Of a DNA stretch of 64,000 bases, positions 9,693 to 48,137 are shown one piece after another. Origin of the DNA: an uncultured delta proteobacterium (lineage in GTDB: Bacteria > Desulfobacterota > Binatia > JACPRU01). The stretch's first letter is position 1. Every line of letters begins with the position of its first letter. Where the stretch lies: positions 736,001 to 800,000 of the forward strand of contig CAVUWD010000016.1 in assembly GCA_963745025.1 (NCBI GenBank), read 5' to 3'. Position numbers and translations under genes: made by a program. Under the pieces are notes generated by a model that saw only the letters and a program-made list of their open reading frames with translations, was not told where the DNA came from and made no database searches.

Positions 9693-9800
9693 CGCGGCAG
9701 GAAATCCCCCCCTGATAACCTTTCGCCCGAGGACGGTCAAACCGGGGAGGCTCGCCGGAGGTCGACGGTCTGTCCTCCGCGTGACAGAGGAAGAGCGCGG

Positions 9801-9914
9801 TTCTACGTCTTTACCGACAGCGGCGCCAAGCGCGAGCGCGAGCTCCGCGAGGTCTTCGGCGACGTGCGCTTGATCGCCACGAATTACGTCGCCGCCGTGT
9901 GGATGCGGCGCTGA
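9801..9914 (+). pseudogene. Orphan 3' gene remnant (no start)
   Basis: FYVFTDSGAKRERELREVFGDVRLIATNYVAAVWMRR* with near-uniform G/C third positions; coding bias is lost upstream. Confidence 0.4.
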
Positions 9915-11086
9915 TCGCCGCCGCTCCAGGTGTGCACCCATGGCAGGAGAAGGTACGCGGGGAAGGACAGGAAGAAAGTGAACACGAAGTACGAAGCATA
10001 GCCGAGCCGAACCGCGCCGAAGCCGCTCGCCGCTCCCGCGAGCGATCGCGTCAAGCCGAACAACGCCGAGAGCAGTGCGTACTGCGTGGCGGCCTGCTCC
10101 TTGTCGCAAGCCCGCATCAGGAAGGCCAGGAACGCAGCGGTTCCGAGCCCTCCCGTGAAGCTCTCCAGCGCAGAGGCGGCATAGATGCCGACCCGTCCGG
10201 ATCCACTCGCGGCCACCGCGGCGTACCCGAGATTGGAAAAGGCCTGAGCGAGGCCGAGCATCCACAGGCTCGGAAAGATGCCGACGCGAGAGGTGAAGGC
10301 GCCGCCGCAAAGCGCGCCGGCGACGCTCAGCGCGACGCCGAGGGTAGTGGAGATCAAGCCGATTTCGGCGACGCTCAGGCCGCGATCGACCCAGAATGGC
10401 TTGACCATCGGCCCCATGCTGGCGTCGCCGAGCTTGTAGGTGAGAACGAAGAGAAACACCCACGCCGCTCCGGGACGCGAAAGCCACGCGCGGAAGCTCG
10501 GCAGCCATCGCGGTCGCGGCCCCGCCTCCACGGTGATCGAGGGCGCGCGGGAGGCAACCGCCGCGAGCAGGCCGAAGACTCCTGCGGCGGTTGCGAACAC
10601 GGCGGGCCAGCCGGCGTAGCCGGCGATCGCGACCAGGCCGCCGCCGGCGACGATGAGAGCCGCGCGGTAGGCCGACACGCGGATCCCGTTCGCGACCCCC
10701 TCTTCCCCCGGGTCGACGAGACCGATCGTGTAGGCGTCGATGGCGATGTCCTGCGTCGCTGAAGCGACGGTGAGCGCGAACAGTAGCGCCCAGAGGGCTC
10801 GGCTCGGAGCGCTCGCGTCGAAAACCGGCAAGGCCGCGACGAGCACGCACATCGCCAGCAGCGCGGTGGCGATCCAGCGCCGCGTGTGGCCGAGGCGGTC
10901 GACGAGCGGCGCCCAGAGGACTTTCAGAGTCCACGGCAGGCCGAGCAGGCTCATCAGCCCGATGTCCTCCCGCGACACGCCGTGCAGGCGGAAGTAGACC
11001 GGCAAGTTGTCGATGACGATCCCGAAGGGAAAGCCTTCGGCGAAGTAGAGAATCGCCACCCAGATGAGCTTGCGGCGAAGCGGCAT
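9884..11086 (-). CDS. ampG: AmpG-family MFS muropeptide permease
   Basis: LYFAEGFPFG, PWTLKVLWAPLVD, SATQDIAIDAY, YKLGD, ATQYALLS. Confidence 0.85.
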   Translation of the reverse strand: MPLRRKLIWVAILYFAEGFPFGIVIDNLPVYFRLHGVSREDIGLMSLLGLPWTLKVLWAPLVDRLGHTRRWIATALLAMCVLVAALPVFDASAPSRALWALLFALTVASATQDIAIDAYTIGLVDPGEEGVANGIRVSAYRAALIVAGGGLVAIAGYAGWPAVFATAAGVFGLLAAVASRAPSITVEAGPRPRWLPSFRAWLSRPGAAWVFLFVLTYKLGDASMGPMVKPFWVDRGLSVAEIGLISTTLGVALSVAGALCGGAFTSRVGIFPSLWMLGLAQAFSNLGYAAVAASGSGRVGIYAASALESFTGGLGTAAFLAFLMRACDKEQAATQYALLSALFGLTRSLAGAASGFGAVRLGYASYFVFTFFLSFPAYLLLPWVHTWSGGDQRRIHTAAT

Positions 11087-29535: not shown

Positions 29536-31150
29536 CGGCGAAGAGCTCGTCCTGCAGGCCGCGAAGTGTCGGCGGCAGTTCGTCGATCACGTCCGAGGCC
29601 AAGAGCCCGGCCTCGCCATGACGACTCGCCACCCGATCCGCCGCCGCCCCGTGCCAGAACACGCCGACTTCGGCCGCTTCGGTAGCCTCGAGCCCCTGTG
29701 CGAGGAGTGACCCGATCATGCCTGCCAGGGCGTCTCCCATCCCGCCGCTCGCCATGCCCGGATTGCCGGTCGGATTGATCGCGACCACGCCGCCGGGATC
29801 GGCGACGACGGTGCGCGCGCCCTTGAGGACGACGGTGACACCGTAATCGACGGCCAGCCGACGAGCGGCATCGACTCGATCTGCCTGCACATCGCCAGTC
29901 GAGCAAGCCAATAGCCGCGCCATTTCCCCTGGATGGGGAGTCAGCACGAGCGGGCAGCGGTGCTTTTTCAGCCAACCGATCTGCCCGGCGAGGCAGTTGA
30001 GACCGTCCGCGTCGATGACCAGCGGAAGCGGCGATGAGGCGATCAGCCATTCGCTGAGCGCCCGGGTCGCGGGCGTGACGCCGATTCCCGGGCCGAACAC
30101 CAGCGCATCCTTACCGTCGAACAGACGCAGGAGTCGCGGCGTATCGTTGTTGGCGAACCGCCAGCCGCCCTCGTGATCCGGCAGCGGCTCGGTCATCAGC
30201 TCCGGGGTCTGTGCGAGATGCCCGCCGAGCGCCGGGGTCGGCGAGGCAATCGTCGCCAGGCCGGAGCCCGCCCGCAGCGCTGCCCGTCCGCAAAGCAAAG
30301 CTGCCCCACTTTTGCCGAGCGACCCGGCGAGCACGAGCACGTGGCCGTAGATTCCCTTGTGGCTGTCGGGAGAGCGTCGCGGCAGCGCCGAGCCGACGCG
30401 TGCGGAGGTGAGCACTCGTTGGCGCGGCGCGACCTCGTGGAGCGTCTCGGCCGGGATGCCGATGTCGGCCACGACGACTTCGCCGGCGAACTCGGCTCCC
30501 GGATGCACGATCAAGCCGACCTTCGGATACGCGAACGTGACCGTCACCGTGGCCTGCACGCTCGCACCGAGGGGCAGGCCTCGATCCGCATCGAGGCCGG
30601 ACGGTACGTCGACTGCCAGGATCGGCGCGGGCGCGGCGTTCAGCGCTTCGACGATCGCCTGCGAGCGCTCATCGAGCGTCCCACGGAGGCCCGTGCCGAA
30701 GAGCCCGTCGACGATGACGCCCGCCCGGGACGCTCGTTCGGCCAGCGTGATCAGGCCGCCCTGCGCGATCTCCCGGATCGGACCGCGCATCCGCTTCCAG
30801 CGAAGCAGGTTCGTGCGCGCATCGCCCGCAACCTCCGACTCGCGCGCAACGAGAATGACCTCGACCGGGACGCGGCGGCGGCGGAGGTGGCGCGCGATGA
30901 CGAACGCGTCGCCTCCGTTGTTTCCCTTGCCGGCGACCACCAGCACTCCCCGGCGAAGCTCACGCCGGAAGCGCCGCCGCAGGACGTCTGCGGCGAGCCC
31001 GCCGGCGCGCTCCATCAGCGTCTCGCCCGGCGTGCCCCGCGCGATGGTATCCGCGTCCATGCGCCGCATCTCGTCGCGGGTCACGACGAACACTCGGCCT
31101 CGCTCGTCGAGCGGGGCCGACACCGCGCCGCGGCGATCGGCTCGCTTCAC
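29519..31150 (-). CDS. nnr: Bifunctional NAD(P)H-hydrate epimerase/dehydratase (YjeF)
   Basis: LMERAG, GKGNNGGD, DGLFGTG, DVPSG, HKG.YG, DADGLN, LTPHPGEMARL, GGMGDALAG. Confidence 0.95.
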   Translation of the reverse strand: MKRADRRGAVSAPLDERGRVFVVTRDEMRRMDADTIARGTPGETLMERAGGLAADVLRRRFRRELRRGVLVVAGKGNNGGDAFVIARHLRRRRVPVEVILVARESEVAGDARTNLLRWKRMRGPIREIAQGGLITLAERASRAGVIVDGLFGTGLRGTLDERSQAIVEALNAAPAPILAVDVPSGLDADRGLPLGASVQATVTVTFAYPKVGLIVHPGAEFAGEVVVADIGIPAETLHEVAPRQRVLTSARVGSALPRRSPDSHKGIYGHVLVLAGSLGKSGAALLCGRAALRAGSGLATIASPTPALGGHLAQTPELMTEPLPDHEGGWRFANNDTPRLLRLFDGKDALVFGPGIGVTPATRALSEWLIASSPLPLVIDADGLNCLAGQIGWLKKHRCPLVLTPHPGEMARLLACSTGDVQADRVDAARRLAVDYGVTVVLKGARTVVADPGGVVAINPTGNPGMASGGMGDALAGMIGSLLAQGLEATEAAEVGVFWHGAAADRVASRHGEAGLLASDVIDELPPTLRGLQDELFADAPRD

Positions 31151-31890
31151 GGGCGCCTTCGCGCCTGATCGAGGCTCGCGCGCATCTCGCGAACGGCCGC
31201 TTCCATGCCGATCAGGACGGCCCGGGAGACGATCCAGTGGCCGATGTTGAGCTCGTGCATCTCGGGGATGGCGGCGATCGGCTTCACGTTGTCGAGCCGG
31301 AGACCGTGACCGGCGTTCACCGTCAGGCCGCAGTCGAATGCGTGACGAGCGCCGGCGCTGAGCCGAGCCAACTCTCCTTGTAGTCGATACGGATCGCGCG
31401 CTTCGGCATATGCTCCGGTGTGGAGCTCCACGACATCCGCGCCGGTCTCCCGGGCGGCGTCGATCTGGCGCGGATCGGGATCGATGAACAGGCTCACGCG
31501 AATCTGCGCCGCTCGCAGCATCTGCACGACGTCACGAAGGGCGTCCTTCTGTGCCGAAACGTCGAGGCCGCCCTCCGTGGTCAGCTCCGCACGGCGCTCG
31601 GGGACGATGCACACGTCCTGCGGCCGGAGCTGGAGCGCCTTGCTGCGACATCTCCGCCGTCGCCGCCATTTCTAGATTTAGCTTCGTCGCGACGGCCGCC
31701 CGCAGCCGCTCGACGTCGCGATCGTTGATGTGGCGGCGGTCTTCCCGCAGGTGCGCGGTGATGCCGTCCGCGCCACCTCGCTCCGCGAATCGAGCCGCCT
31801 CGACCGGGTCCGGGTAGGACGCGCGCCGCGCCTGCCGCACCGTCGCCACGTGATCGACATTGACACCGAGCAGAACCCGGAGCTGGCACC
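31147..31890 (-). CDS. pdxJ: Pyridoxine 5'-phosphate synthase (indels; start approximate)
   Basis: [62 protein letters not shown]. Confidence 0.96.
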
Positions 31891-31891
31891 G

Positions 31892-33268
<1,377 letters not shown>

Positions 33269-33272
<4 letters not shown>

Positions 33273-34263
33273 CGTGGCTGCGCTTCCTTCGGCACGCGCC
33301 GCTTGCGCGCGGCGGCGGGCGCGGCCACGACTTCCACGGTCGTCTCCGGCGGCCGCAGCTCGAGCACTTCGAGGCCTTGCGGCACCGTCGCCTCGATTCG
33401 CTTGGCGTGATAGCCCGGCGCCATTCCGTCGAGGTCGACGTAGAAGTTCTGCGACGACAGGCGCAACTCCCGCACCAGCCGCTGCGGACCGCGGATCGTC
33501 ACATCCACTTTCCGTGGCCGCATGTGATAATCGGGCGGGGGGTTCGTGCACCAATCTCCACGTTGCGAAAATCCTGAGTGGTCACCAGCTCCTCGAGGAG
33601 ACCCCGCACGAGGACGCGATCGGGCGACAGCCGGATCAGTTCCGCGGGGCGCTCGAGCGCGACCGTCTCGTCGAAATTGCCGCTTGTCGGGGCAAGATGC
33701 AACGGCCCGGCCGGGATGTTGCGCAGCGCCTCGACCTGGGCGGCGGGGCCGGTGACCGAGACCTCGGCGGGACGGATTTCGCTTTCGACCACGCGGTAGC
33801 CGGCGGGCACCACCGCCGTCAGGTTCGTGACGACAGGCAGCCTGCGCTCGATGATTCGCTCGACTTCGAGCGTGACCTGCACGGGGCTCAGTCGCGTGAC
33901 GGTCACGCCGCGCGGCAGGTTCAGCATGTCGGTATCGATCTTGAATGACGTGTGTCCGGTCGCCACGTTGCCGAGTTCGATCGCAATTTGCTGCCGGTGC
34001 TCGTCGATCGTGCCGAGGATCGTTCGCGGTCCGCGTAGTCGCACGTCCACCGACTCCGGGATCGGGCTGGTGATCATCAGCTTCGGCGGCAGGTTGCGAA
34101 ACTCGAGCGGCACGATGATGGATCGGTCGGCCTCGCGTGCGCCGAGGTTGACGAAGCCCCAAAGGCCGATCGCGAACGCGATCGAGCCGAGCTTCAGCAG
34201 CCAGTTGTGCACGATCTTGCGGGCGACCGTCTGCCCCAAGCCGCGCCAGTCGGGACTTTTCAT
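33269..34263 (-). CDS. cdaR: CdaR/YbbR-like regulator of diadenylate cyclase (indel near 33540)
   Basis: [18 protein letters not shown] segment, repeated YbbR-like V.V.L.GP units; sits between cdaA and glmM. Confidence 0.85.
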
Positions 34264-34283
34264 CGGTTTCGGTCCGCTCCGGC

Positions 34284-35031
34284 TCAGATCGCGGACAACT
34301 GCTGCAGGGTATTGCGCAGCGTGCCGGCGTCGAGATCGCGAATGATCTTTCCCTCGCGCACGAGCGAAATCTTCCCCTCCTCCTCCGACACGACCACGAC
34401 GACGGCGTCGGTTTCCTCGGTGAGGCCGATGGCGGCGCGGTGCCGTGTGCCGAGTGTCCTCGAGACGTTCGGATTCCCGGTGAGCGGCAAGAAGCAGCCG
34501 GCGGCGGTGATTCGGCCGTGCTGAATGATCACCGCACCGTCGTGGATCGGCGACGTCGGCGAAAAGATCCGACTGCAGGAGCTCGCGACTGACCCGCGCG
34601 TCGAGCGGTGTGCCCACCTCGATGTACTCGTTCAGGTTCGACATCGCGCTCGAACACGATGAGCGCCCCGATCCTCTTGCGTCGCCAGGAGCACGGCCGA
34701 GCGCACGATCTCCTCGAGCACCTGCCCCTGGGCGACTCGCTCCCCCGCGGAGAACGAGCGCCGCGCACCGACCTGGGTCAGTGCGCGGCGGATGTCGTTC
34801 TGGAAGATCACGACGACGACGAGGATGATCGAGGCGAGAAAGTTGGACAGCACCCAGTTCAGCGTGTTCAGCTCGAAGTACTGCGAGGCGAGGTAGGTCG
34901 CGAAGACGATCAGGAAGCCGATCAGCATCTGGGCCGCGCGCGTGCCGCGGATCAGGTTGATCACGTGGTACGCGATGAAGGCGATGATCGAGATGTCGAC
35001 GACGTCCGAGATCCGCCAGAGGAAACGTCAT
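34284..35031 (-). CDS. cdaA: Diadenylate cyclase (indels; start approximate)
   Basis: IRGTRAAQML, IFQNDIRRAL, IGALIV, P.HDGA, LGTRHRAAIG, VVSEE. Confidence 0.93.
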
Positions 35032-35037
35032 TGTCGA

Positions 35038-37781
<2,744 letters not shown>

Positions 37782-37798
37782 ATTCTCCTCCACCGAGA

Positions 37799-37827
37799 AC
37801 CGTAACACATAGCATTTTCTGCGGCAA
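37799..37827 (-). promoter_or_regulatory. Possible sigma70 promoter of the ftsH operon
   Basis: TTGCCG-N17-TACGGT with extended TG, in an AT-richer patch. Confidence 0.3.
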
Positions 37828-37865
37828 CGCATGGCATCGCCGCATGGCATCGCCCGGGATGTCAC

Positions 37866-39212
37866 TCAGCGCACGCGGCGGACCTCGACGACGAGAACGC
37901 GACGCGTCGCGGAGGCAACCGACGCGCGTTCGTCGCGTGCCAGACCGGGCACCCAGAGGATCGCGCCGCCGCTTTCCAGAACGAGCCACGAGCAGCGCTC
38001 CACCCGGGGCACCTTGGCATCGACGAAGACGTCCTGGAGCTTCTTCGTTCCGCCGAGACCGAGCGGACGCAGCCGATCGCCCGGGCGCGGATTGCGCATC
38101 CGGATCCGCGCTCCGTCGAGCGCGGTGAGATCGAAGACCGCACGCCACGGTCCGGGACGCACCCGACGCGCCGACGTTCGCGTCTCGACCCGCCAGCCGG
38201 GGACGCTCACCGTACCCTCGCGCGGCAGCGTCTGCGCAAAGCCGCGCGCGTGCGTCGCGGGCAGGTTCCAATGCAACCGTCCCCCGCTGCGCGTCACCGA
38301 TCCACCGGGGAGAGCGACGCTCTTGCCGTCTCCACGCTCCGCCGCCAGATCTCGCAGCCGCTCCACGTGATGGAGCTCGATGGCGCGGAGATTACCGCGC
38401 GAAGACACGAGCCAGCGGCGGAGCATCCGACGCTGGAGCGCGGCCGGCGCGCGACGCAGGAGCGCGCACTCGAGACCAAGCGCCGGGTCACTGCGACTGC
38501 GTCGCCGCGCTGAGCCCTCCAGCACGGCTTCGTCGTCTCGCGAGAGCTCGGCCAGCCGTGCGAGGGCGACCCGGATGGCGGGATTGAAGTCGCGCTCGAG
38601 AAGCGGCAGCAGACGATGGCGGATACGGTTGCGCGTGAAGCGACCGACCGCGTTCGAGCGGTCGACGCGGTAGCGACGCTTCCGCTTCTGCAAGTAGGCC
38701 AGCACCTCGGTGCGGGAGACGTCGAGAAACGGCCGGATCACGCCATCGGCACGCTTCGGCTGGATGCCGCCGAGGCCGCCGATGCCCGCGCCGCGAATGA
38801 GACGATGAAGCACGGTCTCGGCCTGGTCGTCGAGCGTGTGCCCGGTGGCGATACGGCGGAATCGCTCGCGGGCGGCGACTGCGAGCAATGCCTGATACCG
38901 CGCCTCGCGCGCCCGCTCCTCGAGATTCGCCCGTCCCGTGATCCTCGCGTCGACGGCGTGGAACTCGCAGCCGAGACGCGCGGCGAGGCACGCGACGAAG
39001 GCTTGGTCGCGATCGGAATCGCGCCCGCGCAGGTGGTGATTGACGTGAGCGACGCCCACCCGCCGCGACCCGCCATCCAGCTCGGTCAGCGCGGCGAGGA
39101 GCGCGACGGAGTCTGGCCCACCCGATACCGCCACCAGCACCGAGTCATCCGCCTCGAGAAGCGAATGGCGCCGGATCGAGCGTGCGACCTTGCGGAGAAC
39201 CGGGTCGTTCAT
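37866..39212 (-). CDS. tilS: tRNA(Ile)-lysidine synthase
   Basis: VAVSGGPDS, HVNHHLR, EERAREARY, TGHTLDDQAET, RNRIR, KKLQDVFVDAKVPR. Confidence 0.96.
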   Translation of the reverse strand: MNDPVLRKVARSIRRHSLLEADDSVLVAVSGGPDSVALLAALTELDGGSRRVGVAHVNHHLRGRDSDRDQAFVACLAARLGCEFHAVDARITGRANLEERAREARYQALLAVAARERFRRIATGHTLDDQAETVLHRLIRGAGIGGLGGIQPKRADGVIRPFLDVSRTEVLAYLQKRKRRYRVDRSNAVGRFTRNRIRHRLLPLLERDFNPAIRVALARLAELSRDDEAVLEGSARRRSRSDPALGLECALLRRAPAALQRRMLRRWLVSSRGNLRAIELHHVERLRDLAAERGDGKSVALPGGSVTRSGGRLHWNLPATHARGFAQTLPREGTVSVPGWRVETRTSARRVRPGPWRAVFDLTALDGARIRMRNPRPGDRLRPLGLGGTKKLQDVFVDAKVPRVERCSWLVLESGGAILWVPGLARDERASVASATRRVLVVEVRRVR

Positions 39213-39308
39213 GGGCGTCTCCAGAGTCCTCTGGCGCGGCCGAGGAGGCAAGGATGGCAAGGATGGCGGCTTGCGGGATTCGCTGCGGGGCGGTATTTTC
39301 CCTCGATC

Positions 39309-39968
39309 GTGCGCGTGCTTTTGTTGTCGCTGCTGTTGAGCGTTCCGGTCATCGCCGCGGAGAACCCGGAGCTCCCGGCCGGCCTTCCACCGACGCGAAG
39401 CGCCGACGAGCGCCGCGCGGTGCTCGAGCTGATGAAGCAGAACCGTCAGAAGTACGGCGAGGATGCCGCTCTTCTGCAGGGCTTGCTGCTTACCCACGCG
39501 CTACAGGGTGAAGCCGTCCTGACCACGGAATCGACGATCGTCGGGTTCGAAGAGCACGAGGGCCACAAGTACGTCACGTTCCGCCTTGCCAGTGGCATCG
39601 TCCTCAACGACAAGTCGCTCGATCGCGAGCAACGGCTCGAGCGCATCTGGCACCTCATCCTCGAACGAACCCTCCTCCGCTATCCGAAGTTCAGCGCGCC
39701 CGCCGACGGTGTGGCGATCGAGATCGAGTACAGCCATCGCCCGTACCAACAGCTCGACGACCTCTACAACGAGACCGACGATACCGGCACGGTCGAGCGC
39801 GCGAAGTTCTACATGCTTTCCTCCGACCTGACCGAGCTTCTCGCTCACCAGCTCGGAACGCAGGACTTCCTCGAGCGCTCGCGCGTCTTGGTCGACAATC
39901 AACCGGCAAAGCTCCGGCTCATGGAAGTGTCGCTGCCGCCGCGACCGCCGACCGCCGAGCGTCGCTGA
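39309..39968 (+). CDS. Hypothetical exported protein
   Basis: GTG start, hydrophobic signal peptide ending VIA-A, strong coding bias. Confidence 0.75.
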   Translation: MRVLLLSLLLSVPVIAAENPELPAGLPPTRSADERRAVLELMKQNRQKYGEDAALLQGLLLTHALQGEAVLTTESTIVGFEEHEGHKYVTFRLASGIVLNDKSLDREQRLERIWHLILERTLLRYPKFSAPADGVAIEIEYSHRPYQQLDDLYNETDDTGTVERAKFYMLSSDLTELLAHQLGTQDFLERSRVLVDNQPAKLRLMEVSLPPRPPTAERR

Positions 39969-40108
39969 TCGGGCGGCGACCGCCCCAGCGCACGACCCGC
40001 CGCGCCTCGACTCTCGAAGCATCCTCCCGTTCCGCCGCCGAGCGCCAGTCCTTCAAGAGCTACGGAGCGCTGCTCGAGTGCGCCTAGCCACTCGAGCCGG
40101 CAAGCCCC

Positions 40109-40137
40109 TGGACAGACGCACGAGCGTCCGGTAGCCC
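40109..40137 (+). promoter_or_regulatory. Possible original tRNA-Met promoter
   Basis: TGGACA-N17-TAGCCC just upstream of the tRNA 5' fragment. Confidence 0.3.
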
Positions 40138-40152
40138 ACTGATTTCAAGCGC

Positions 40153-40191
40153 GGCGGCGTAGCTCAGGTGGCTAGAGCGAGGGTCTCATAA
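40153..40191 (+). pseudogene. tRNA-Met 5' half (left att site of element 1)
   Basis: GGCGGCGTAGCTCAGGTGGCTAGAGCGAGGGTCTCATAA, identical to 45592-45630; identity stops at the end of the anticodon loop. Confidence 0.95.
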
Positions 40192-40326
40192 GACAACCCG
40201 AGCCGCGCCGCTCGTGTATCACCGAGAGATATTGAGAGCGATAAGCCGCAATCTATCAGGCTTTCCGCTCCGTCGATAAATACCGCGTCACTTCTCATCG
40301 CACTCGATATTCGCGCTTATCAGTGT

Positions 40327-40341
40327 CGAACAACTACCCGA
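40327..40341 (+). repeat. Arm-type site candidate of element 1
   Basis: CGAACAACTACCCGA, identical at 45528-45542. Confidence 0.7.
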
Positions 40342-40398
40342 TCGGGGCGAACTAGAGCCGGGGGGTCGCTGGCTCCAAGGTAGGCAATCGTTGCCTGC

Positions 40399-40698
40399 TT
40401 GACGCAGCGGGCTCCTCTGCGGTTCTATTGCCCGTTGAGCCTTCACTTCCTTCGCGCCGAGCACCATGAAGTTTCTCGGTCAACCGCCGAGCAACGACTC
40501 TGGACTGCGGCCCTCCGCGACGCACTGAAAATCTGCCGCGGCGAAACGCCCGCTTCGAACGACGACAGGCGAAGAGCTATGGCCTGGATCGCTCGCAGGT
40601 CGGACGACGTGGCTAGTTTCGACTGGTGCTGCCGCGCGCTTGGGATCGAGCCTGCCGCTGCGCATGCCTGCCTCGGTGAGCAATGGTCCAAGGCGTAG
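40399..40698 (+). CDS. Hypothetical protein (EQRLW...AMAWI...SFDWCCRALGI family; start uncertain)
   Basis: Motif pattern recalled from small phage-associated/Binatia hypothetical proteins; not verified by search. Confidence 0.6.
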   Translation: MTQRAPLRFYCPLSLHFLRAEHHEVSRSTAEQRLWTAALRDALKICRGETPASNDDRRRAMAWIARRSDDVASFDWCCRALGIEPAAAHACLGEQWSKA

Positions 40699-40770
40699 GC
40701 AAGGACCACCTATACCTGTCCAACCGACCGGTCCTCGCGCCTTCCGAACCTTCCGCCAGGCTGTGCTGTC

Positions 40771-41073
40771 CTAGTTCGGCCCGGAGTGTCCTAGTTTGAC
40801 GGGTGGAGTGTCCTGCTTTGCGAGGCGGGGATCGTCGCTAGCGATACATAACGCCCAGCTCTCTGCACCACGTGCGGCTTTCGTCGGGCACTTGCTGTCC
40901 AGGTATTTACGCATCTGCGTCTGATCGGCCATGCACTTTTCCGCCGAATCGTAACTGCTCCTGATATCCCACTTCGATAACGGTACGCTGAGAACGACTT
41001 TCGCCTTGTGGATAGGAGGCGTCGTTAAGTACCACCCGAGAAGGGCGAGCGCGGCGACGTGGCGACGGATCAT
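40771..41073 (-). CDS. Small secreted Cys-containing protein
   Basis: ALALLGWYL..PP...PLSKW...SYDSAEKC...CIASDDPRL; pattern recalled from a Binatia-expanded family, not verified. Confidence 0.75.
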   Translation of the reverse strand: MIRRHVAALALLGWYLTTPPIHKAKVVLSVPLSKWDIRSSYDSAEKCMADQTQMRKYLDSKCPTKAARGAESWALCIASDDPRLAKQDTPPVKLGHSGPN

Positions 41074-41645
41074 GCCGACAAGCCTAGCACTCGAGCTGGG
41101 TTTCGTCTCCTCAGAACAAACCCCTATCCGGTAGGTTCACGGGCGCGGTATCCCAATTTGCCCAGCGGGTGTCCTACTTAGGACAGCCCCAGGCTGAGCG
41201 CGTCGCTCCGTGGGCGATTGAAGCCGGAGCGGCACGCCGAAGGTGCTGCCGCCGATCACGGTCAACGGAGTAGGTTTTCGCCGCCTCAACATTGCTCGAG
41301 ACGGCGGAGGGCGGGTTGCTGGTGCGCGGGTAGCGTCGCAGATTTTCGACCGCATGAGGGGTTTCCCTTATTGGCGGAACGCACCACCTGCGGTAAAGCG
41401 ACGCCACTTCTGCCCTGGCGGGGGGCAGGATGACAGAGCGATCCGCTCATCATGCCCCCCGCCACCCCGCCCGCGTAGTTGAAGAGGCGGGCAACCCTTA
41501 CCTTTTATCACCGAGGCACGACAGCATGATCCTCGTCATCTCCATCGGCCTGGGCCTTCGCGATTGCTTCCGAACCTTGCGTCCGCGAACCCGCCGCGCG
41601 AGCGACGCTCCGCGAACGAGTGAAACCGGGGCGGCGCCATGAAGA

Positions 41646-42038
41646 ATGCTACCGCCTCACGTCGTAGAGGTCGCCTACGGGCTCTACTCGTGCGAGCGCG
41701 GCTACTTCATCCGGCAAGGCCAGTGCATCCCGTTCGAAGAGATCCCGCACGGACCCGTCGTCGAGGTCTCGAGCCTGCCCTCGGCCGGCGACGGGGCGCC
41801 AGGAACTTGTCCGAGCGGCGGCTGCGGCTCTTTCGCGGCGCCCTCCTTTGACCTTGGCGGCCATCGGAGATTCTATCTCGCGAGCCAACGCGACGAGTGC
41901 GCCCGCGATCACCGAGAGCAGCAGCCACCCGAGCCACGTCGAGCACCCGCCGCAGGCGAGGGTCTTCCGGTAATAGAGCCCACCGCGGCCCGCGGCGACG
42001 TAAGGCCCGCCATCGGCCCGCTACTGTGTCCCACCTAG
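41646..42038 (+). CDS. Hypothetical Cys-containing ORF (possibly a remnant)
   Basis: First ~65 codons look coding (YSCERGYFIRQGQCIP); the tail is low quality. Confidence 0.35.
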   Translation: MLPPHVVEVAYGLYSCERGYFIRQGQCIPFEEIPHGPVVEVSSLPSAGDGAPGTCPSGGCGSFAAPSFDLGGHRRFYLASQRDECARDHREQQPPEPRRAPAAGEGLPVIEPTAARGDVRPAIGPLLCPT

Positions 42039-42311
42039 GCCGGGCGGTAGTGATTTTGGCACCGGTGTCCCGCTGGCGCGTGCTCTGGCCTTGTCCATCT
42101 CGTCTATCGTGTCACGAGCGGCGTTAGGCGTGGGCTTAGGCGTGCCCGGTCTTTGCCGACGTCCGGAGCCCGCAGGGGATTGCCCAATTCCGCTTGAATT
42201 AGTGAAGGTTCCGGGCGCCTCCGGAATCTGAGCGAGGGCGACGCCCCGTGAAGGCGTGTTGGCAGCCGCCAGCGTGAGCACCATTGCCAGTGGGACACTT
42301 TTGAATCTCAT
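42021..42311 (-). CDS. Small secreted protein, tandem paralog A
   Basis: AAGGAGG RBS; signal peptide; AQIPEAPGTF...ARDTIDEMDKARARASGTP. Confidence 0.75.
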   Translation of the reverse strand: MRFKSVPLAMVLTLAAANTPSRGVALAQIPEAPGTFTNSSGIGQSPAGSGRRQRPGTPKPTPNAARDTIDEMDKARARASGTPVPKSLPPGLGGTQ

Positions 42312-42380
42312 GGTTGCCTCCTTCTCCCACGCGCGAGGCGTGGCTTGCTCGAAGCCGTCGCCGAACATCGCGTTGCTCAG

Positions 42381-42701
42381 TCAAAACTTTGGTGTCGGCT
42401 CTGGCTCCGGTGTACCGCTGGCCCGTTCCCTGGCCCTTTCAAATTCGTCGATCGTGTCACGAGCGGGGTCGGGCGCGGGTTCGTTGGATTTAGGCGTCGC
42501 CCATTTTTTTGGAGGGCGCTTTGTCTTGAAATCGCCGCCGCCCTCGCCGTCGTCACTCAACCCGCCCCCGGCTGAATCTGAGAAGCTTCCGGGCGCCTCC
42601 GGAATCTGAGCGACGGCGATGCGCTGTGAAAGCGGGTTGAGCGCCGCAAGGGCGACCATCGTTGCCAGTAGATAGAAACGCCCCACACTCCTGAATCTCA
42701 T
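42381..42701 (-). CDS. Small secreted protein, tandem paralog B
   Basis: GGAGG RBS; signal peptide; AQIPEAPGSF...ARDTIDEFERARERASGTP. Confidence 0.75.
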   Translation of the reverse strand: MRFRSVGRFYLLATMVALAALNPLSQRIAVAQIPEAPGSFSDSAGGGLSDDGEGGGDFKTKRPPKKWATPKSNEPAPDPARDTIDEFERARERASGTPEPEPTPKF

Positions 42702-42797
42702 CGTAAGATACCTCCCCCCCACGTGCCAGGCGTCGCCTGCTCGAAGCCGTCGCCGAACATCATGGCACCTATCACTTCCCCCGGTTCTTCTCGCGGA

Positions 42798-43335
42798 TCA
42801 CTGCTCCGCTACGGGGACCACGTCCCACGTGATCCGATAGTCCGGCGCGTCCCAGCCGAGCACCTCGAAGGAGAACGTGCCCTGCGCGCCAGGGACCAAG
42901 GTCGACGGCGCCACAGCCTGACACCGGCGCCCATACTCGATACAGATCTGCACGCCGTAGACGGGGAACTCGGCGCCGTTCGCCACTGTGCCCTCGAACA
43001 ACCGGCCGTTTCGGTACTGCTTCACCACCCATGCTCTGGATAGCGACCGCGGTGATCTCCCTGCGGCGCTCAAGTTCCTTTTCCCTCGCCGCGTCTGCCG
43101 CTGCCCTGGCCGCCTCCTCTGCCGGCGGCGCTGGCGTAGGCGTCGCCAAGAACTCGCCCGGTTTCCACGATGAGCCAGCCTCGCCGCCGGTACTCGGCCG
43201 CACGCTCCCGACCGGAACACAATCCTCCGGCGGCGTCGGCCCGACGTACAGGCTGCCGTCGCGCTTCTTGCACTTCGCCATCTCGGCGTTGGCGATCGTG
43301 GCCGCCGCGAGCACTATCGTCACGAGCCCCTTCAT
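42798..43335 (-). CDS. Exported protein, DUF4124-like N-terminus plus Ig-like (FxLYD-like) C-terminus; indel near 43035
   Basis: MKGLVTIVLAAATIANA-EMAKCKKRDGSLYVGPTPP; after the shift, FEGTVANG...PSTLVPGAQGTFSF. Confidence 0.6.
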
Positions 43336-43693
43336 GGTGGAGTGCCTCATCGAAGGGTTCGGTGGCCTCCTTCTCGCGCAGCCTCGCTCCAAGAAAGGTA
43401 AGAGCATGGCGACCACCAAAAGCTAGTCCCGACGAGGTTCCCAGAGCCCTTGCTTGCCGCGCTCCCAATCGAGTACCCAGCCGGCGACGCTACCGGGCTT
43501 TGTCTCGGGCGCCAGTATTTCGCTCTGGATCTCGCTCAAGCTCCTGCCTGCCTTCCACAGCGCGAATGCCGGCTCCTTGCTCTATCTCCCTTGGGCATGA
43601 CCGACCTCCAGTCCTCTCGGATCTACGGGGTGCCGAGACGGAGTCGGTTTAGCTCATCCGGCACGACAAGCTCAAAGACTTGCCCGGCCACGT

Positions 43694-44900
43694 TTAGACG
43701 TTCAACTGCACGCCCGCAGACCGCACGCGCCTCTGCGGCGGGAGATTCTGCTCGCTAGGCCGGATCGTGCCGACCTTCATCCCATTGGCAAGCGACGCCA
43801 GACGCTCGGACTCGCGAGACAGCGATAGACCCATCGACAGCAAGCCCGCGAGCGCGGCGACGTTCAGAACCTTGCAGTCGAGCGCCTCGTTCCGCGCCCG
43901 CGTCTTCACCCAGATCCGCCGCGGATGCCCGTGGTGGTATTTCGTGATGACCTTCTCGCTCGTCAGTTGCTCGAAGTACTCGACGTCGTAGTGATCGGGG
44001 AAGTGAAAGCTCGCCGGCTGCCCGATCGGCAACCGCAGGCGCGCGAAGATCAGCTCCTTCGCGGAGTCCACGCCGATCAGGAAGAGCGGCACCTTGCCGA
44101 CGTTGTTTCGCGTCGGCTTCCGCGGCCAGACCGGCCTCGATCCGCCCACACCTTTCGTCGCCCACACGCGCCGGCCGAAGCGCTCGCGAGCGAAGCTGTA
44201 CACGGCCTGGGTGAAGTCGCCCATCGCGTCGCAGCACGCCGCCGCGACCGGGAGCACGCCGCCGTCCGCGCGCCTTCTCTGTTCAAGCAGTAGCGCGTCG
44301 AGATCCCGCCACGATGTGTTCGTCGACGGATCGCCGCGGATCGTTCTGAAGTCGAGCGACCAGCATTGCTCGGACGAATCCCACCCGCAGAACTCGACCT
44401 CGAGCCTGTCGTCCTGCGTGTCGATTCCGGCCGTGATGACCACCACACCAGCAGGAACTTCTGGGCCATAGAGTGCTCGCGCCGGGAAAGCAGGCTCGTC
44501 TCGTCGAATTGCTCGCCCTTCTCCTCGTAGGTCTCCCCGAGACTCAACGTCACAAACGTTTTCAACTGTTCCGGGTAGTCCTTCGCCTGCAAGAACATCG
44601 TCGCGAGCTCGGCGAGCTTCACCCACGGCGAGTACAGCGCCGAGAGATGAAAACCGGCCGTGCCGTTGAAAGGCCGCCGCACGCCACGTCCCGAGGTGCA
44701 CCGCGGCGAGCCGCTGGTCGTCGTTCCACTTCGCGCCGCAGGACTCGCAGCGGTAGGTGGCCGTCTCGGGCAGGTGGTTGCCGCTCTCGCTCTTGTCCCA
44801 CTTGATCTGAGCCCATCGAAGCGCCTGCTCGTGCACGCAGGCGCCGCACGGCACGTGATAGCGTCTCTGGTCGCTTGTCTCGAAGGCCGCCTCGATCCGG
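43694..44900 (-). pseudogene. Phage terminase large subunit (lambda GpA family), C-terminal part, frameshifted
   Basis: RIEAAFETSDQRRYHVPC..C, GFHLSALYSPW, LGETYE, TAGIDTQDDRLE, LFLIGVDSAKE, YFEQLTSE, RNEALDC. Confidence 0.92.
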
Positions 44901-45038
44901 GCGGATGAGGTGGACCACTTCAGGCCGAGCGCGGGCAGCGAGGGCGATCCGATCGAGTTAGCCAAGCGGCGCACGTCGAATTTCTGGAACAGAATGCACA
45001 TTCTGACGAGCACGCCGACGATCAAAGGCGAGAGCCGG
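44901..45038 (+). pseudogene. Inverted GpA terminase fragment (Walker B region)
   Basis: ADEVDHFRPSAGSEGDPIELAKRRTSNFWNRMHILTSTPTIKGESR on the opposite strand to the rest of the gene. Confidence 0.88.
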
Positions 45039-45142
45039 TCGGGACAGCGGGCGAAAAGAGACCTTCGGAGGGTGCGGAAGAGATCCTCGCGCAGGATCTC
45101 GACGTAGATGATCACGGTGCCGCTCCCGACGACCGCTCGCTC

Positions 45143-45545
45143 ATGGAACACGCCGTCATCGTCGACACAAAAAAGGCCGGGATATCTACCTGCCCGCGGA
45201 AGTACGCGCCGTGCTCGAGGTGCAATGGACCGAACGCCAGGCGAATTACCCGGCCTGCTCGCTCGTCTTCCACCATGGCGGCGAACGGATCTTGTCGTTC
45301 TACAAGGCCTGGTATAAGGCCTGCGATTCGGCAGGGGTCGGGAAGAAAGTACCGCACGACTTCCGACCGGAGCGCGGTCCGGAACATGGTCCGGGCGGGA
45401 ATCGCGGAGCGGGCTGCGATGGAGATGGCAGGACACAAGACGAGGGCGATCTTCGACCGCTACCACATCGTCAGCAACGGCGATCTAACGGGAGGCGGCG
45501 AAGCGCCTGGATGCGGCTTTGAGCTCGCGAACAACTACCCGAGGC
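45143..45545 (+). pseudogene. Tyrosine integrase C-terminal remnant (element 1)
   Basis: KAWYKAC..AG...PHDFR/RSAVRNMVRAG...AGHKTRAIFDRYHIV; frameshifted, N-terminus absent. Confidence 0.9.
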
Positions 45546-45578
45546 ACCGAAACGACAGGCGAGCCCGAAATTATCCAC

Positions 45579-45584
45579 TAAAAT
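45579..45584 (+). promoter_or_regulatory. -10-like box supplied by element 1 for the intact tRNA
   Basis: TAAAAT 7 nt upstream of tRNA G1; the left copy has TGATTT at the equivalent position. No good -35. Confidence 0.4.
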
Positions 45585-45591
45585 CAAGCGC

Positions 45592-45665
45592 GGCGGCGTA
45601 GCTCAGGTGGCTAGAGCGAGGGTCTCATAATCCCTAGGTCCGTGGTTCGAGTCCACGCGCCGCCA
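45592..45665 (+). tRNA. tRNA-Met (CAT), probably elongator; CCA not encoded
   Basis: Acceptor GGCGGCG/CGCCGCC+A, D arm GCTC/GAGC, anticodon loop CTCATAA, T arm CGTGG-TTCGAGT-CCACG. Confidence 0.95.
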
Positions 45666-46454
45666 TGATTTTTCCACCGTCTTTGCTGCATCTTTTTCCG
45701 TAGCGTCGCCGCCCGAAAGATGACTGAGTTGGTTAGGTTGCGCGGGGGTTGCGGACGGTTGCGGCCCCTCGGCCGCCTTCGGAGGGGCGATCGAGTCGAG
45801 CCGGTCCGCGCCGCTGCGGTCGCTCGTCGGGATCCACCGGCCGTAGATGTCGACCGTAATTTGGATCGAGGAGTGCCCGAGCTGGTCCTTCACCCACGCG
45901 AGGCTTCGGCCGTCCTGAATGTGCAGGACGGCGAACGTGTGCCGCAGGTCGTGAATCCGCCGATGCCGGAGCCCTAGCTTTCGGAGAAGCGGCGCCCACA
46001 CGTTTCGCCGGAAGGCATCGCCGTCGAGGCGGCCGCCGTCCCGGTCGATGAACACCCACGCGGAAGGATCGAGCGCGCGGGCGCACTCCGCGGCGGCTGC
46101 CTCCCGGGCTCTTGCGGCCTCGGCCTTGAGCACCTCGGCGAGCCCCGCGGACATCTCGACCGAGCGGGCCTTCCCGCTCTTCGGGGTTGTCATCCGCCCT
46201 CCGGTGAAATTCCGCTCCACGCGAAGCGTCCGGTTGTGGAAGTCGAGATCGCCCCATTGGAGCGCAATCGCCTCCCCGAGGCGGAGCCCCGTCCGCGCGA
46301 GCGTGAGGATGAACGGGAAGAAGTGCCGGCGCGAGTCAGGCTTCCCGAGCTTCGTCGGCCAGTCGCGCGAGAGAGCGAGCGCGGCCGAAAGCTCCTCGGC
46401 CGAAAGCGGGTCGGCCTGCTTCTTGATGTCGTCGCGAGCCCGCAGCGCCGCACT
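45603..46454 (-). pseudogene. Tyrosine integrase, catalytic domain only (element 2)
   Basis: LARTGLRLGE, TPKSG, HDLRHT, LGHSSIQITVDIY: full R-K-H-R-H-Y set. No N-terminal arm/core-binding domain; reads antisense into the tRNA. Confidence 0.92.
45736..45755 (+). repeat. Arm-type site candidate of element 2
   Basis: GGTTGCGCGGGGGTTGCGGA, identical at 47158-47177; built of GGTTGCG units. Confidence 0.8.
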
Positions 46455-46518
46455 TCATGCAGAAGTTGGCGCTCGTCGGTATTGGAGCACCACATTTGTC
46501 ACAAGGGTTGAAAGCCAC
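46336..46518 (-). CDS. Zinc-ribbon N-terminal fragment overlapping the integrase frame
   Basis: CDKCGAPIPTSANFCMKCGA is a classic zinc-ribbon motif. Confidence 0.6.
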   Translation of the reverse strand: MAFNPCDKCGAPIPTSANFCMKCGAAGSRRHQEAGRPAFGRGAFGRARSLARLADEAREA

Positions 46519-46544
46519 CGATTGGAGCCTCGTCGCCTCGCGGG

Positions 46545-46742
46545 TCAGCTCGGGGCCGCGGGGCGCTTACGCATCGAAGTCTCGACGCGGACTACGTCCG
46601 ACAGGCGCGTCCCGCTTTGCATACCGGAACGTAACGCACCACAAGCCGGACAAAATTGATCGCGATCCATCATACCCCGATGGATGCAAGAGGGCTTTCG
46701 CTGTAGTTCCAGCCAGCGTGAAATGAATGTTCGGAGCTTCAT
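46545..46742 (-). CDS. Small hypothetical protein with CxxC
   Basis: Strong SD AAAGGAGGTG; CIH...FCPACG. Confidence 0.6.
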   Translation of the reverse strand: MKLRTFISRWLELQRKPSCIHRGMMDRDQFCPACGALRSGMQSGTRLSDVVRVETSMRKRPAAPS

Positions 46743-46838
46743 GCTGTCACACCTCCTTTGCTAACGGCTCAGGCCACTCTGGCCGTTCCAGCGAATTCAG
46801 CATATTGCGCTTTTGGCTGCCGGGCCTTGTTGCGAATT

Positions 46839-46852
46839 GACAATCCATTGTC
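46839..46852. promoter_or_regulatory. Palindromic operator candidate overlapping TTGACA
   Basis: GACAAT-CC-ATTGTC between divergent small ORFs. Confidence 0.45.
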
Positions 46853-46887
46853 TAAACGCGCCAAGGTAGCACGCGTTGAAGCACGCA

Positions 46888-47076
46888 ATGTCGAAACAAA
46901 TCGTTTTCACCGCGCCCCCTCGGTGCTCTTGCGGAGCGCCTGCGGATCGGTCGAAGCTCACGATCTGTGATGCCTGCGCTCGAAATCTACTCGATCAAGC
47001 CCGGTCCCGACGGGCTCGCGCGCATCACAACACGCCGACTCGGCGAGACCGTTCAGGCGAAAATCTGATGACTTAG
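46888..47076 (+). CDS. Small hypothetical Cys-rich protein
   Basis: MSKQIVF...CSCG...ICDAC. Confidence 0.45.
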   Translation: MSKQIVFTAPPRCSCGAPADRSKLTICDACARNLLDQARSRRARAHHNTPTRRDRSGENLMT

Positions 47077-47249
47077 GCTGGTTCTTCGACGGTGGGCAAA
47101 CTTTTTAGCAATCCTGCGCCTTAGACCTTTCTCGGCGCCTCTCAACGCGTGGCTCCTGGTTGCGCGGGGGTTGCGGATTTGTGGCTCTCGGGGCCCCTCG
47201 ACGGCGAAAAAAGCCTAGAAAACTCCGCGATGGCGGGCAGTTTTTCGCC

Positions 47250-47293
47250 TCTCATAATCCCTAGGTCCGTGGTTCGAGTCCACGCGCCGCCAT
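47250..47293 (+). pseudogene. tRNA-Met 3' half (right att site of element 2)
   Basis: TCTCATAATCCCTAGGTCCGTGGTTCGAGTCCACGCGCCGCCAT, identical to 45623-45666. Confidence 0.95.
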
Positions 47294-47435
47294 TTACTCT
47301 TCTCCGGCAGCTCGACTGTGCTTCCGCATCGGCGCCAGCTGCCACGCCGCCGATGCGCGCGATCAGTTCGCCCCTCTTGAAGCCGTCCCCGTGCGCGGCA
47401 CCCTCCGGGCGGATCTCCGATGGACGAACTATCGA

Positions 47436-48137
47436 TCAGCGCCGCCCGCCCCAGCGGTTCCAGTACGTCACGTCGGTGGCGGGGAACCGCCGTGCCGGCC
47501 GGACATCCCCGCCCTTCAGCCACGCGACCGGTAGCAGCGCCGCCTGCGTATAGCTCTCCGGAATGCCGAGCACGTCGGCCGTCTCCTGCTCGTGAAGGAG
47601 TGTGAACGTCGTCCACGCCGAAGCAATCCCCCGCGCGCGCAGCGCGAGCATCAGCGACCAGGTCGCCGGAAGGATCGAGCCCCACATCGATGCCTGTGTG
47701 AACACGTCCTCGTGCGCGAATCGCCCCGCGATGCACGGAATCAGGTGGACCGGGACGCGATGGAGGTTCTCGATCAGGTGCACCGCCGACTTCACGATCG
47801 CGGGCAGTCGTCGCTGACGAGGATCGTCGGCCGCGTACTGCCGCGCGACGCTCATGCCGGTTCGCGAGAGCCCCGTCTTTCCCTGGAGGTAGAGCTCGGA
47901 GCCCTTGCGGTAGATGTCCGCGAGCTTCGCGCGAAGACCGGCGTCCGTGACGACGAGGAATCGCCAATCCTGCGAGTTCGCTCCCGTCGGCGCCTGCAAC
48001 GCGACGTCGATCGCCTCCTCGATCAGCGCCTCGGGCACCGGCCGCGCGAGGTCCAGCCGGAGCCGAACGCTGCGCGTCGTCTTCATCACGTGATCGACGC
48101 TCGCGACGTCGATCCGACCGACAGTTTCGTTCGTCAT
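47436..48137 (-). CDS. Nitroreductase family protein
   Basis: TTRSVR.RLD, QAPTGANSQDWRFLVV, WSLMLALRARG..SAWTT. Confidence 0.92.
   Translation of the reverse strand: MTNETVGRIDVASVDHVMKTTRSVRLRLDLARPVPEALIEEAIDVALQAPTGANSQDWRFLVVTDAGLRAKLADIYRKGSELYLQGKTGLSRTGMSVARQYAADDPRQRRLPAIVKSAVHLIENLHRVPVHLIPCIAGRFAHEDVFTQASMWGSILPATWSLMLALRARGIASAWTTFTLLHEQETADVLGIPESYTQAALLPVAWLKGGDVRPARRFPATDVTYWNRWGGRR

Follow-up and report, generated by a model that had tools for sequence, protein, structure and literature searches.

Two integrase elements of opposite polarity probably meet at the only elongator tRNA-Met gene of a Binatia metagenome bin

How does a tRNA gene come to lie between displaced copies of its own two halves? 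This question is raised by a 64-kb stretch of DNA (hereafter the window; C16:736001-800000, contig CAVUWD010000016.1 of GenBank assembly GCA_963745025.1) from the metagenome bin of an uncultured delta proteobacterium of the class Binatia, which we compared with other genomes, all of them bins or drafts. The window contains one tRNA gene, a tRNA(CAT) found by ARAGORN at 45592-45665 on the + strand, and two direct repeats meet in it. The first repeat (40136-40191 and 45575-45630) covers 56 nucleotides (nt) at 95% identity, and its final 47 nt (40145-40191) are exact, comprising 8 nt of upstream flank and nt 1-39 of the tRNA; the second (45623-45666 and 47250-47293) covers 44 nt at 100% identity, starting at tRNA nt 32 and reaching 1 nt past the gene. 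In the intact gene, the 5' portion belongs to the first exact block (45584-45630) and the 3' portion to the second (45623-45666), and the two blocks overlap in TCTCATAA only: the 7-nt anticodon loop together with the base just before it, which ends the 5' strand of the stem. The displaced halves, nt 1-39 upstream (40153-40191) and nt 32 to the end downstream (47250-47293), are both on the + strand, each on the side of the intact gene where Islander places fragments of its kind. Exact repeats this long (47 and 44 nt) are far more than chance would give, and across the whole 5.65-Mb assembly (20 contigs) the tRNA sequence occurs in three places only, all at this locus, three additional weak matches being other tRNAs. 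An earlier inspection of the letters without database searches (the sequence-only reading) had described the three pieces, the repeat lengths and the sole overlap at the loop, and ARAGORN and the repeat search confirm its coordinates and lengths. The first block ends at the last loop base and the second starts one base before the loop, which places both in the anticodon-loop class of tRNA integration sites, reportedly defined in Williams' sublocation scheme. We regard it as highly probable that two unrelated tyrosine-integrase elements of opposite polarity hit this single-copy elongator tRNA-Met gene in its anticodon-loop region.

The identity of the tRNA was assigned by comparison within the assembly, where three of the 52 tRNA genes have the anticodon CAT. 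One of the other two starts with C and ends in ...CAA (C1/A72 type), a mismatched first pair that we take to be the bacterial initiator mark; in the remaining one the acceptor stem is GGGCCC, positions 4 and 5 both being C, presumably the typical form of lysidine-modified tRNA-Ile2. The acceptor stem of the window tRNA (GGCGGCG/CGCCGCC) is fully paired. By exclusion, the window gene appears to be the sole elongator tRNA-Met of the bin, a uniqueness that the sequence-only reading had put up for checking; because a blastn comparison with annotated E. coli genomes for isotype gave no match, the assignment rests on exclusion and on general identity rules. The same 74 nt are found at 100% identity in the genomes G001, G002 and G006 and in five more genomes of the class, and the rebuilt gene therefore encodes the native tRNA, including the U-U pair at the bottom of the anticodon stem.

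Which of the flanking sequences are ancestral was read from relatives. The left interval (element 1, 40192-45583) is absent from G001, a genome of the same genus that aligns with the window at 84-89% identity over 30405-39983 and then again from 48314. The segment at 40105-40152 (+ strand), the ancestral upstream flank of the tRNA gene that is now joined to the displaced 5' half, has a homolog in G001 that runs straight into an intact, 100% identical tRNA. Global alignment of the 60 nt upstream of the G001 tRNA gave z=12.9 against the outer-left flank of the window and z=1.2 against the inner-left flank. Because the outer-left flank is joined directly to an intact tRNA in G001, 40192-45583 is an insertion, and the comparison supports the outer-left half as the ancestral one. 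The relative G007 (another genus, same family) shares the left synteny and continues into the 5' half (nt 1-39, 100% identical) and into the same junction as in the window, TCTCATAA followed directly by GAC; the next 150 nt are 71% identical to the start of element 1, and the contig then ends. An exact-pattern scan for this junction between 5' half and element found none in viral contigs and, in species-representative genomes, the G007 contig only. The exact repeat, the own-genome search and the alignment all point to 40145-40191 (+ strand), which joins 8 nt of flank to the displaced host 5' half, as attL, the left attachment site of an element of 5'-restoring polarity.

The 5.4 kb of element 1 end in the remnant of an integrase gene (integrase 1; 45169-45581, + strand), identified from its translations and its similarity to P0001, a 369-aa integrase of family PF00589. 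It retains the last ~130 codons in three frames (45169-45369, 45365-45487 and 45489-45578, with the stop at 45579-45581) and ends 11 nt before the tRNA; the pieces correspond to residues 230-335 of P0001, with identities of 48% and 80%. Tyrosine recombinases share the catalytic residues R-K-H-R-H/W-Y, of which integrase 1 retains the HxxR, the H and the Y region only, spread over the three frames. At both frame changes (~45365-45369 and ~45484-45489) the window differs from its homologs by one base in a two-base run (CC, AA), and both could be sequencing errors, for example if the bin was built from error-prone long reads; the loss of the first ~230 codons is structural. A second landmark is the remnant of a terminase large subunit of the gpA type (43694-44905, - strand), which matches GpA_nuclease (1.4e-65) and GpA_ATPase (4.7e-19, profile positions 178-247 only) in Pfam and phrog_15 (2.6e-101) in PHROG. 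The terminase lacks its N-terminal part and has at least one frameshift, with a further nuclease piece in a second frame, but as a packaging gene inside the interval it marks element 1 as the remnant of a tailed prophage. None of the nine other open reading frames (ORFs) of element 1 matches a PHROG, and the terminase is the sole phage gene recognised there.

The right interval (element 2, 45667-47249) is bounded by the 44-nt repeat and looks like a 1.6-kb island remnant of the usual 3'-restoring polarity; the exact repeat and the own-genome search point to the displaced host 3' half (47250-47293, + strand) as its attR. Next to the tRNA, and reading towards it, lies the remnant of integrase 2 (45700-46454, - strand; Pfam Phage_integrase, PF00589, 8.7e-13; phrog_1, 3.6e-42), of which the catalytic domain is left, in one open frame with the motifs ARTGLR, KSGK, HDLRH, GH and IYGRW. 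The N-terminal domains that its G006 homolog (54% identity) still shows are missing. In G006 the tRNA is followed by a convergent integrase of this type (78% DNA identity, frameshifted) and, at 3.4 kb, by a displaced 3' fragment; in G002 a matching 3' fragment lies next to the same neighbour gene. G001 has another integrase remnant converging on its tRNA from the 3' side (PF00589, 2.6e-27), which is 26% identical to integrase 2 and lies within 3.2 kb unrelated to the window (L037 9826-13100); no 3' fragment was detected. The 3' side of tRNA-Met appears from these loci to be a recurrent landing site, or hot spot. The status of element 2 as an ordinary 3'-restoring island nevertheless seems less secure than that of element 1. 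Each interval carries a tyrosine integrase remnant, as Islander asks of an island, and the two remnants are dissimilar (24% identity at best, compared through the full-length relative P0001) and converge on the intact gene. That much had been seen by the sequence-only reading; its further claim of two separate elements of opposite polarity, with the host halves 7 kb apart, gains support from G001 and G007 on the left and from G006 and G002 on the right.

Repeated motifs near both ends of each interval are candidate arm-type sites and agree with the proposal that each element has arm-like repeats of its own. The 14-mer GAACAACTACCCGA occurs exactly twice in the window, both times inside element 1 (0.17 chance matches expected with up to 2 mismatches). 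One copy (40328-40341, + strand; P' side) lies within the left end, 137 nt from the left core copy on its right-hand side; the other (45529-45542, + strand; P side) is part of the 3' end of integrase 1 and codes there for three threonines (Thr-Thr-Thr), 50 nt before the tRNA and 81 nt left of the right core copy. In a circular element 1 both copies would flank the core. Two tandem GAACAACTACCCGA-type copies lie 139-159 nt inside the junction of G007; in G319 ACAACTACC lies near both ends of a 29-kb element, at 108 nt from the left end and at 66 nt before the tRNA, and the position of the motif relative to the tRNA at 45529-45542 recurs in G250 and G319. The candidates of element 2 are three tRNA-proximal copies of GGTTGCGS, ~10-11 nt apart, 70 nt after the tRNA (45736-45764, + strand), and two distal copies 73 nt before the displaced 3' half (47158-47176, + strand); 5 of the 11 matches to GGTTGCGS in the window lie at the two ends of element 2, and together they would fit one attP. 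A GGGTGCG pair similar to the proximal motif, GGGTGCGCGGGGGGTGCGGA, lies 69 nt after the tRNA in G006.

These observations suggest the following course of events. Element 1 would have been a phage with an attP directly behind its integrase gene, containing the 5' part of the tRNA gene and at least 8-17 nt of the flank that precedes it; the phage would have inserted upstream and displaced the host 5' half and promoter region 5.4 kb leftwards. Element 2 would have been an island whose attP carried the 3' part; inserting downstream, it would have displaced the host 3' half 1.6 kb rightwards, so that the displaced halves would now lie 7 kb apart and the working gene between two integrase 3' ends. 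Each insertion would have regenerated an intact gene usable by the other element, and the order of events is therefore immaterial. Recombination of attB (L-X-R) with attP (P-X-P') would yield L-X-P' and P-X-R wherever cleavage falls. In element 1 the 47-nt block would act as X, the 3' end of the integrase gene as P and the remainder of the tRNA as R, a geometry that puts the element upstream and carries the upstream flank of the host off with the 5' copy; element 2 would be the mirror image. Both elements would later have lost most of their DNA by deletion, and the arrangement would be frozen because neither integrase can work. In principle, either element could excise alone and leave an intact gene. 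Because this is the sole elongator tRNA-Met, selection must preserve the inner 74 nt together with whatever causes them to be transcribed. Two ideas of the sequence-only reading did not hold: opposite polarity is not what enables coexistence, given that same-polarity elements stack in tandem in G319 and G089, and the geometry of recombination does not lock the inner ends in place, the broken integrases being enough to explain immobility.

Which nucleotides of the gene are foreign depends on where the strands were exchanged. For characterised integrases of the anticodon-loop type, a review gives the loop, enclosed by the inverted repeat of the stem, as the 7-bp overlap (PMC8371274). We place both crossovers in the loop because the blocks end there, because the fragments of relatives end at nt 38-43 and because characterised integrases act in this way; by that analogy, strand exchange would have taken place within the anticodon loop. 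If so, the 5' half of the gene and its upstream region most likely come from element 1, and the 3' half and the downstream region from element 2; with a crossover elsewhere in X, only the flanks would be foreign. The tRNA would be expressed from element-1 DNA. According to the same source, recombinant bacterial tRNA genes keep their original promoter "with very few exceptions" (PMC8371274), and this locus would be one of them.

Could the whole locus be the work of one element? Some phages disrupt the tRNA gene of their host and bring a copy of their own (tRNA-dependent lysogeny), and a single composite element at 40192-47249 with its own complete tRNA-Met could have split the host gene for good through one 8-bp crossover, the internal copy compensating for the loss. 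The overlap of the outer halves in TCTCATAA only is as one insertion with an 8-bp core would give, and a published paper on tRNA-dependent lysogeny exists. We nevertheless hold this explanation to be very improbable. Two unrelated integrases abut the internal tRNA, each with repeated sites at both ends of its own interval, and the intact gene sits exactly at both inner att sites, so that two integrases and two sets of end motifs are found where tRNA-dependent lysogeny would have one and would bring its complete tRNA gene as cargo at a distance from attP. The parts also occur separately in relatives (the element-1 junction alone in G007, element-2 islands alone in G006 and G002, G001 without element 1), and two ordinary attP sites would bring identity blocks like the present ones of 47 and 44 nt. 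That different strains or organisms were joined at short tRNA repeats during assembly or binning is, in our judgement, the remotest of the explanations considered, even though the assembly is a metagenome bin (92.65% complete, 7.6% contamination) and no bridging read was found in the public runs examined: the repeats of 44-56 nt are shorter than any read, the contig is 1.14 Mb long with host synteny with G001 continuing on both sides, and each junction type occurs in an independent assembly (5' half and element end in G007; integrase and tRNA in G250, G201 and G322; a tRNA facing integrase 2 in G006; the 3' fragment in G002 and G006).

The right side might have a longer history, with element 1 as described and a mosaic of successive 3'-side elements beyond the tRNA, the 3' fragment stemming from an older island. 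Such a mosaic would suit a 3' hot spot where G001 holds a different integrase remnant and where G089 and G273 have two 3' fragments each, and an element 2 that lacks the N-terminus of its integrase, holds unrelated zinc-ribbon-like ORFs and has a right flank that matches G001 weakly. We think it very unlikely, since the GGTTGCG clusters after the tRNA and before the 3' fragment are placed like the arm pair of a single attP, since G006 combines this integrase type and this proximal motif with a single distal fragment, since the 3' fragment remains identical at all 44 of its positions, and since repeat and own-genome searches revealed no third, degenerate 3' fragment in 45667-47249. The interpretation as two separate elements of opposite polarity is thus preferred, and the following points, besides the contamination of the bin, weigh against it. 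The empty site that the sequence-only reading called for is seen on the left side, in G001, whereas a clean right-hand site lacking element 2 was found in none of the relatives examined; the 3' flank of G001 matches the outer-right flank of the window weakly (z=1.9, compared with -0.8 for the inner flank). The integrase 1 fragments alone are too short and fall below Pfam significance. A scan of 39900-47500 for sigma-70-like promoters found no site, which bears on a promoter supplied by element 1, and because the repeats do not differ between host and element, the physical source assigned to the gene nucleotides depends on the placement of the crossover; the chimeric gene of the sequence-only reading therefore stands in its two-element core, while the crossover position, the nucleotide origin and the element-1 promoter are conjectural. 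Neither reads nor contigs of the public sequencing runs bridge any of the four junctions, and the excision products that the sequence-only reading proposed to look for were not seen: 20 runs, no RNA among them, had a word share of at most 0.19, and the four examined gave unitigs of 151-325 nt at depth 2-3, off the junctions. One read "joint" from 42990 to 46078 (side of 21 nt, depth 2) was too weak to use.

Is the arrangement unique to this bin? A survey of tRNA-Met covered 401 genomes coarsely, with the two best candidates scored in each, and 41 in depth, and 19 genomes with two matches were re-examined; its counts are lower bounds. Fragments of the 5' half ending at nt 38-43 occur in at least seven genomes (G000, G007, G021, G133, G250, G289 and G322; that of G289 is at a contig end and ambiguous), and fragments of the 3' half in at least 14 (G000, G002, G006, G063, G089, G146, G162, G215, G221, G229, G241, G250, G273 and G297; that of G162 is at a contig start), with two each in G089 and G273. 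Integrase-1-like genes or remnants lie directly upstream of tRNA-Met or its 5' half, and co-directional with it, in G250, G133, G322 (twice) and G201. The survey for pairs of 5' and 3' fragments that the sequence-only reading had suggested found one in G250, where tRNA-Met is separated from a 5' fragment by 2.5 kb with an integrase-1-like remnant and from a 3' fragment (86% identity) by 2.1 kb, all on a single contig. A scan of 51 of the 122 ORFs beyond the tRNA in 12 loci with a co-directional upstream integrase of this family revealed a second integrase converging from the other side in three, namely at tRNA-Arg in G319 (same family, both intact), at Leu-TAA in G133 and at Thr in G211. The double-sided arrangement recurs, then, in four other genomes.

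Some features of the surveyed loci were recorded on the side. In L059 (G133:C5, 9940-10363) and L062 (G322:C591, 393-727), integrase-1-like remnants are followed by a tRNA-Met 5' half without a 3' half, as an attP or the inner junction between tandem elements might show; an ORF beside the remnant of L059 (10912-11394) is transposase-like by appearance. The 2.5-kb remnant of G250 (L058, G250:C50, 8372-10126) contains a 473-aa ORF and a short ORF that look, by eye, radical-SAM-like and antitoxin-like.

How readily integrase 1 and its relatives act on the 5' side was analyzed with the homologous C-terminus from G250 as the query, which matched 4418 proteins at E<=1e-10, mostly of ~368 aa; where source names are given, they are tyrosine recombinases of Deltaproteobacteria and Candidatus Binatia bins. 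With P0001 as the query, 98 of the 401 genomes of the class match at E<=1e-60, a tally that includes five flagged unpublished genomes. The best 30 loci hold 31 integrase genes, all from this one bacterial class, and polarity counts refer to these: 12 lie 15-118 nt upstream of a same-strand tRNA and are co-directional with it, 9 are convergent, and 10 have no tRNA within 150 nt. The co-directional targets are Arg-CCT (five), Leu-TAA (two) and Met, Thr, SeC, Leu-CAG and Ser-TGA (one each). Displaced 5' fragments were sought at seven co-directional loci outside tRNA-Met. Upstream of the tRNA-Arg gene of G319, which an intact integrase adjoins, two fragments (nt 1-43 and 2-41, both 100% identical) lie at 34 and 29 kb, and upstream of that of G074, which an intact integrase precedes, one (nt 1-39) lies at 5.6 kb; these verified fragments allow the co-directional position to be read as 5' restoration. 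Counting against so general an equation, no displaced 5' fragment was found in the fetched DNA of G226 (60 kb), G133:C24 (31.8 kb), G002:C245 (9.4 kb) and G021:C195 (6 kb), and the seventh locus, G289:C181, is at a contig end. For the 31 proteins, a quickly built maximum-likelihood tree accounts for the polarities with 5 changes, and well-supported branches make at least 3 of these unavoidable. With shuffled labels the average is 7.0 changes, and 42 of 500 shuffles need as few as observed, so polarity is only weakly clade-bound.

Among isolated phages the family has distant relatives only (48 records, best 27% identity, all under 60%), and none of 18 pattern matches to the G250 integrase C-terminus in viral contigs was confirmed. 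As a separate observation, contig C24 of G226 (L101/L102) carries two complete, 100% identical tRNA-Arg(CCT) genes at 140723-140797 and 143351-143425, 2.6 kb apart, downstream of an intact family integrase; the pair may reflect an attP with a whole gene, or a duplication. We would give an even chance to a wider generalisation, by which integrases of this ~368-aa family readily flip the polarity of their attP, the 5' form being at least as common as the 3' form in the class; their elements would routinely replace the promoter side of single-copy essential tRNA genes and, together with 3'-side elements, give rise to wholly element-supplied genes, whose inner ends would be undeletable because they are the gene; and ACAACTACC in the integrase 3' end would be an arm site tied to the C-terminal TTT residues.

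The rest of the locus is summarised briefly. The left host flank includes TilS, the tRNA-Ile lysidine synthetase (37866-39497, - strand; Pfam ATP_bind_3, 6.9e-47, TilS_C and TilS), in a region that blastn finds syntenic with G001, G007 and G006, and the right host flank includes a nitroreductase-family gene (47436-48137, - strand; Pfam Nitroreductase, 3.2e-17) that is partly syntenic with G001. Element 1 carries, presumably as cargo, two tandem paralogous small ORFs (42021-42368 and 42381-42722, - strand; DNA repeats of 79-91% identity) without a match in Pfam or PHROG; their DNA homologs lie in the 3'-side islands of G006 (L040, ~9647-10041) and G002 (L041, 161-486), and the same cargo is therefore found on the opposite side of the tRNA in relatives. 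Four GTGTCCTRNTT repeats (40766, 40786, 40808 and 41169, the last ending at 41179; + strand; five window matches compared with 1.98 expected) were considered as arm sites of element 1 and rejected, lying as they do 575-990 nt from its end and being absent from the element end of G007; three of them are spaced 20-22 nt, and they are possibly operator-like sites of the decayed phage. An 18-nt inverted repeat with a 13-nt spacer (41416-41464, 94% complementary) lies in non-coding-looking DNA of element 1. A TGATTTCAC-like motif occurs 8-16 nt upstream of the tRNA in five element-borne copies and, by alignment, also in the host flank of the window. In element 2, short - strand ORFs with a CxxC...CxxC, zinc-ribbon-like pattern (46339-46742), without a Pfam or PHROG match, occupy the place where the N-terminal half of integrase 2 would be expected. 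The frames of the 3'-side integrases of the window (45603-46454, - strand) and of G001 (L037, 9826-10431) are open through attL and across the tRNA gene, and both end in the same residues, read from the tRNA complement; the open frames probably reflect high G+C and not a true lengthening of the proteins. By GC content the elements (0.59-0.69) cannot usefully be told from the flanks (0.61-0.72), since the two ranges overlap.

The locus matters in several respects. An essential single-copy tRNA gene would have had both of its halves and its upstream region swapped for mobile DNA with its tRNA sequence unchanged, and tRNA genes that look conserved can therefore be mosaics. A large integrase family uses either side of the anticodon loop, and its intact members are useful for following the evolution of attP polarity and target choice; some might serve as tools to place cargo upstream of a tRNA gene. 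Annotation pipelines should not treat 5'-side islands as rare exceptions in these lineages.

How the locus relates to known systems can be judged against Islander, whose paper counts 3919 islands (PMC4383910). Of these, 159 have a 5' and 3760 a 3' fragment; an anticodon-centred attP is given for 2083, and there are 125 tandems of two or more. Islands with 5' fragments and tandems are thus already known, and the locus follows from known integrase behaviour; new, as far as checked, are the double-sided outcome and a family of labile polarity, which we did not see described. Literature searches within one collection of papers returned no description of one tRNA gene flanked by both a 5'- and a 3'-fragment island, although the Islander tables might already list such cases. 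The statement of the sequence-only reading that 5'-restoring integrases are uncommon is correct overall, at ~4% in Islander, but not in this lineage, where they are common: 5' polarity is found in 12 of the 21 tRNA-adjacent family genes, far above the overall share. Element 1 resembles the 5'-fragment islands of Islander in having an intact tRNA gene, an upstream 5' fragment in the same orientation and a tyrosine integrase between them, and differs in that the same gene also bears a 3'-fragment island on its other side. The Klebsiella islands at the arg2 tRNA gene have an integrase clade that, "in contrast to all other" islands, directs insertion to the upstream side of the gene, and they use a D-loop site (10.1101/2020.11.02.365908); they share insertion upstream of the tRNA gene with element 1, whereas its block ends at the anticodon loop and its integrase family appears to be different. 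The pTN3-like integrases of Thermococcales use the 5' half of a tRNA gene as attB, and integration restores an uninterrupted gene (PMC8371274); they belong to archaeal plasmids and viruses, and their likeness to the present case lies in the attB 5' half. Lambda-type heterobivalent integrases offer a comparable layout, with a gene that reads towards attP, motifs flanking the core at ~70-140 nt and a 7-nt loop core in an inverted repeat, the last an analogy drawn in the same source (PMC8371274); unlike the arm sites of those systems, the motifs described here are candidates predicted from their letters. Another counterpart is the tandem island array, in which each integration likewise regenerates the target and of which relatives of the window provide examples with tandem 5' (G319) and 3' (G089) fragments. 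Such arrays, however, are one-sided and leave the host with one half of its own gene, whereas at this locus both sides are occupied and neither half need be that of the host.

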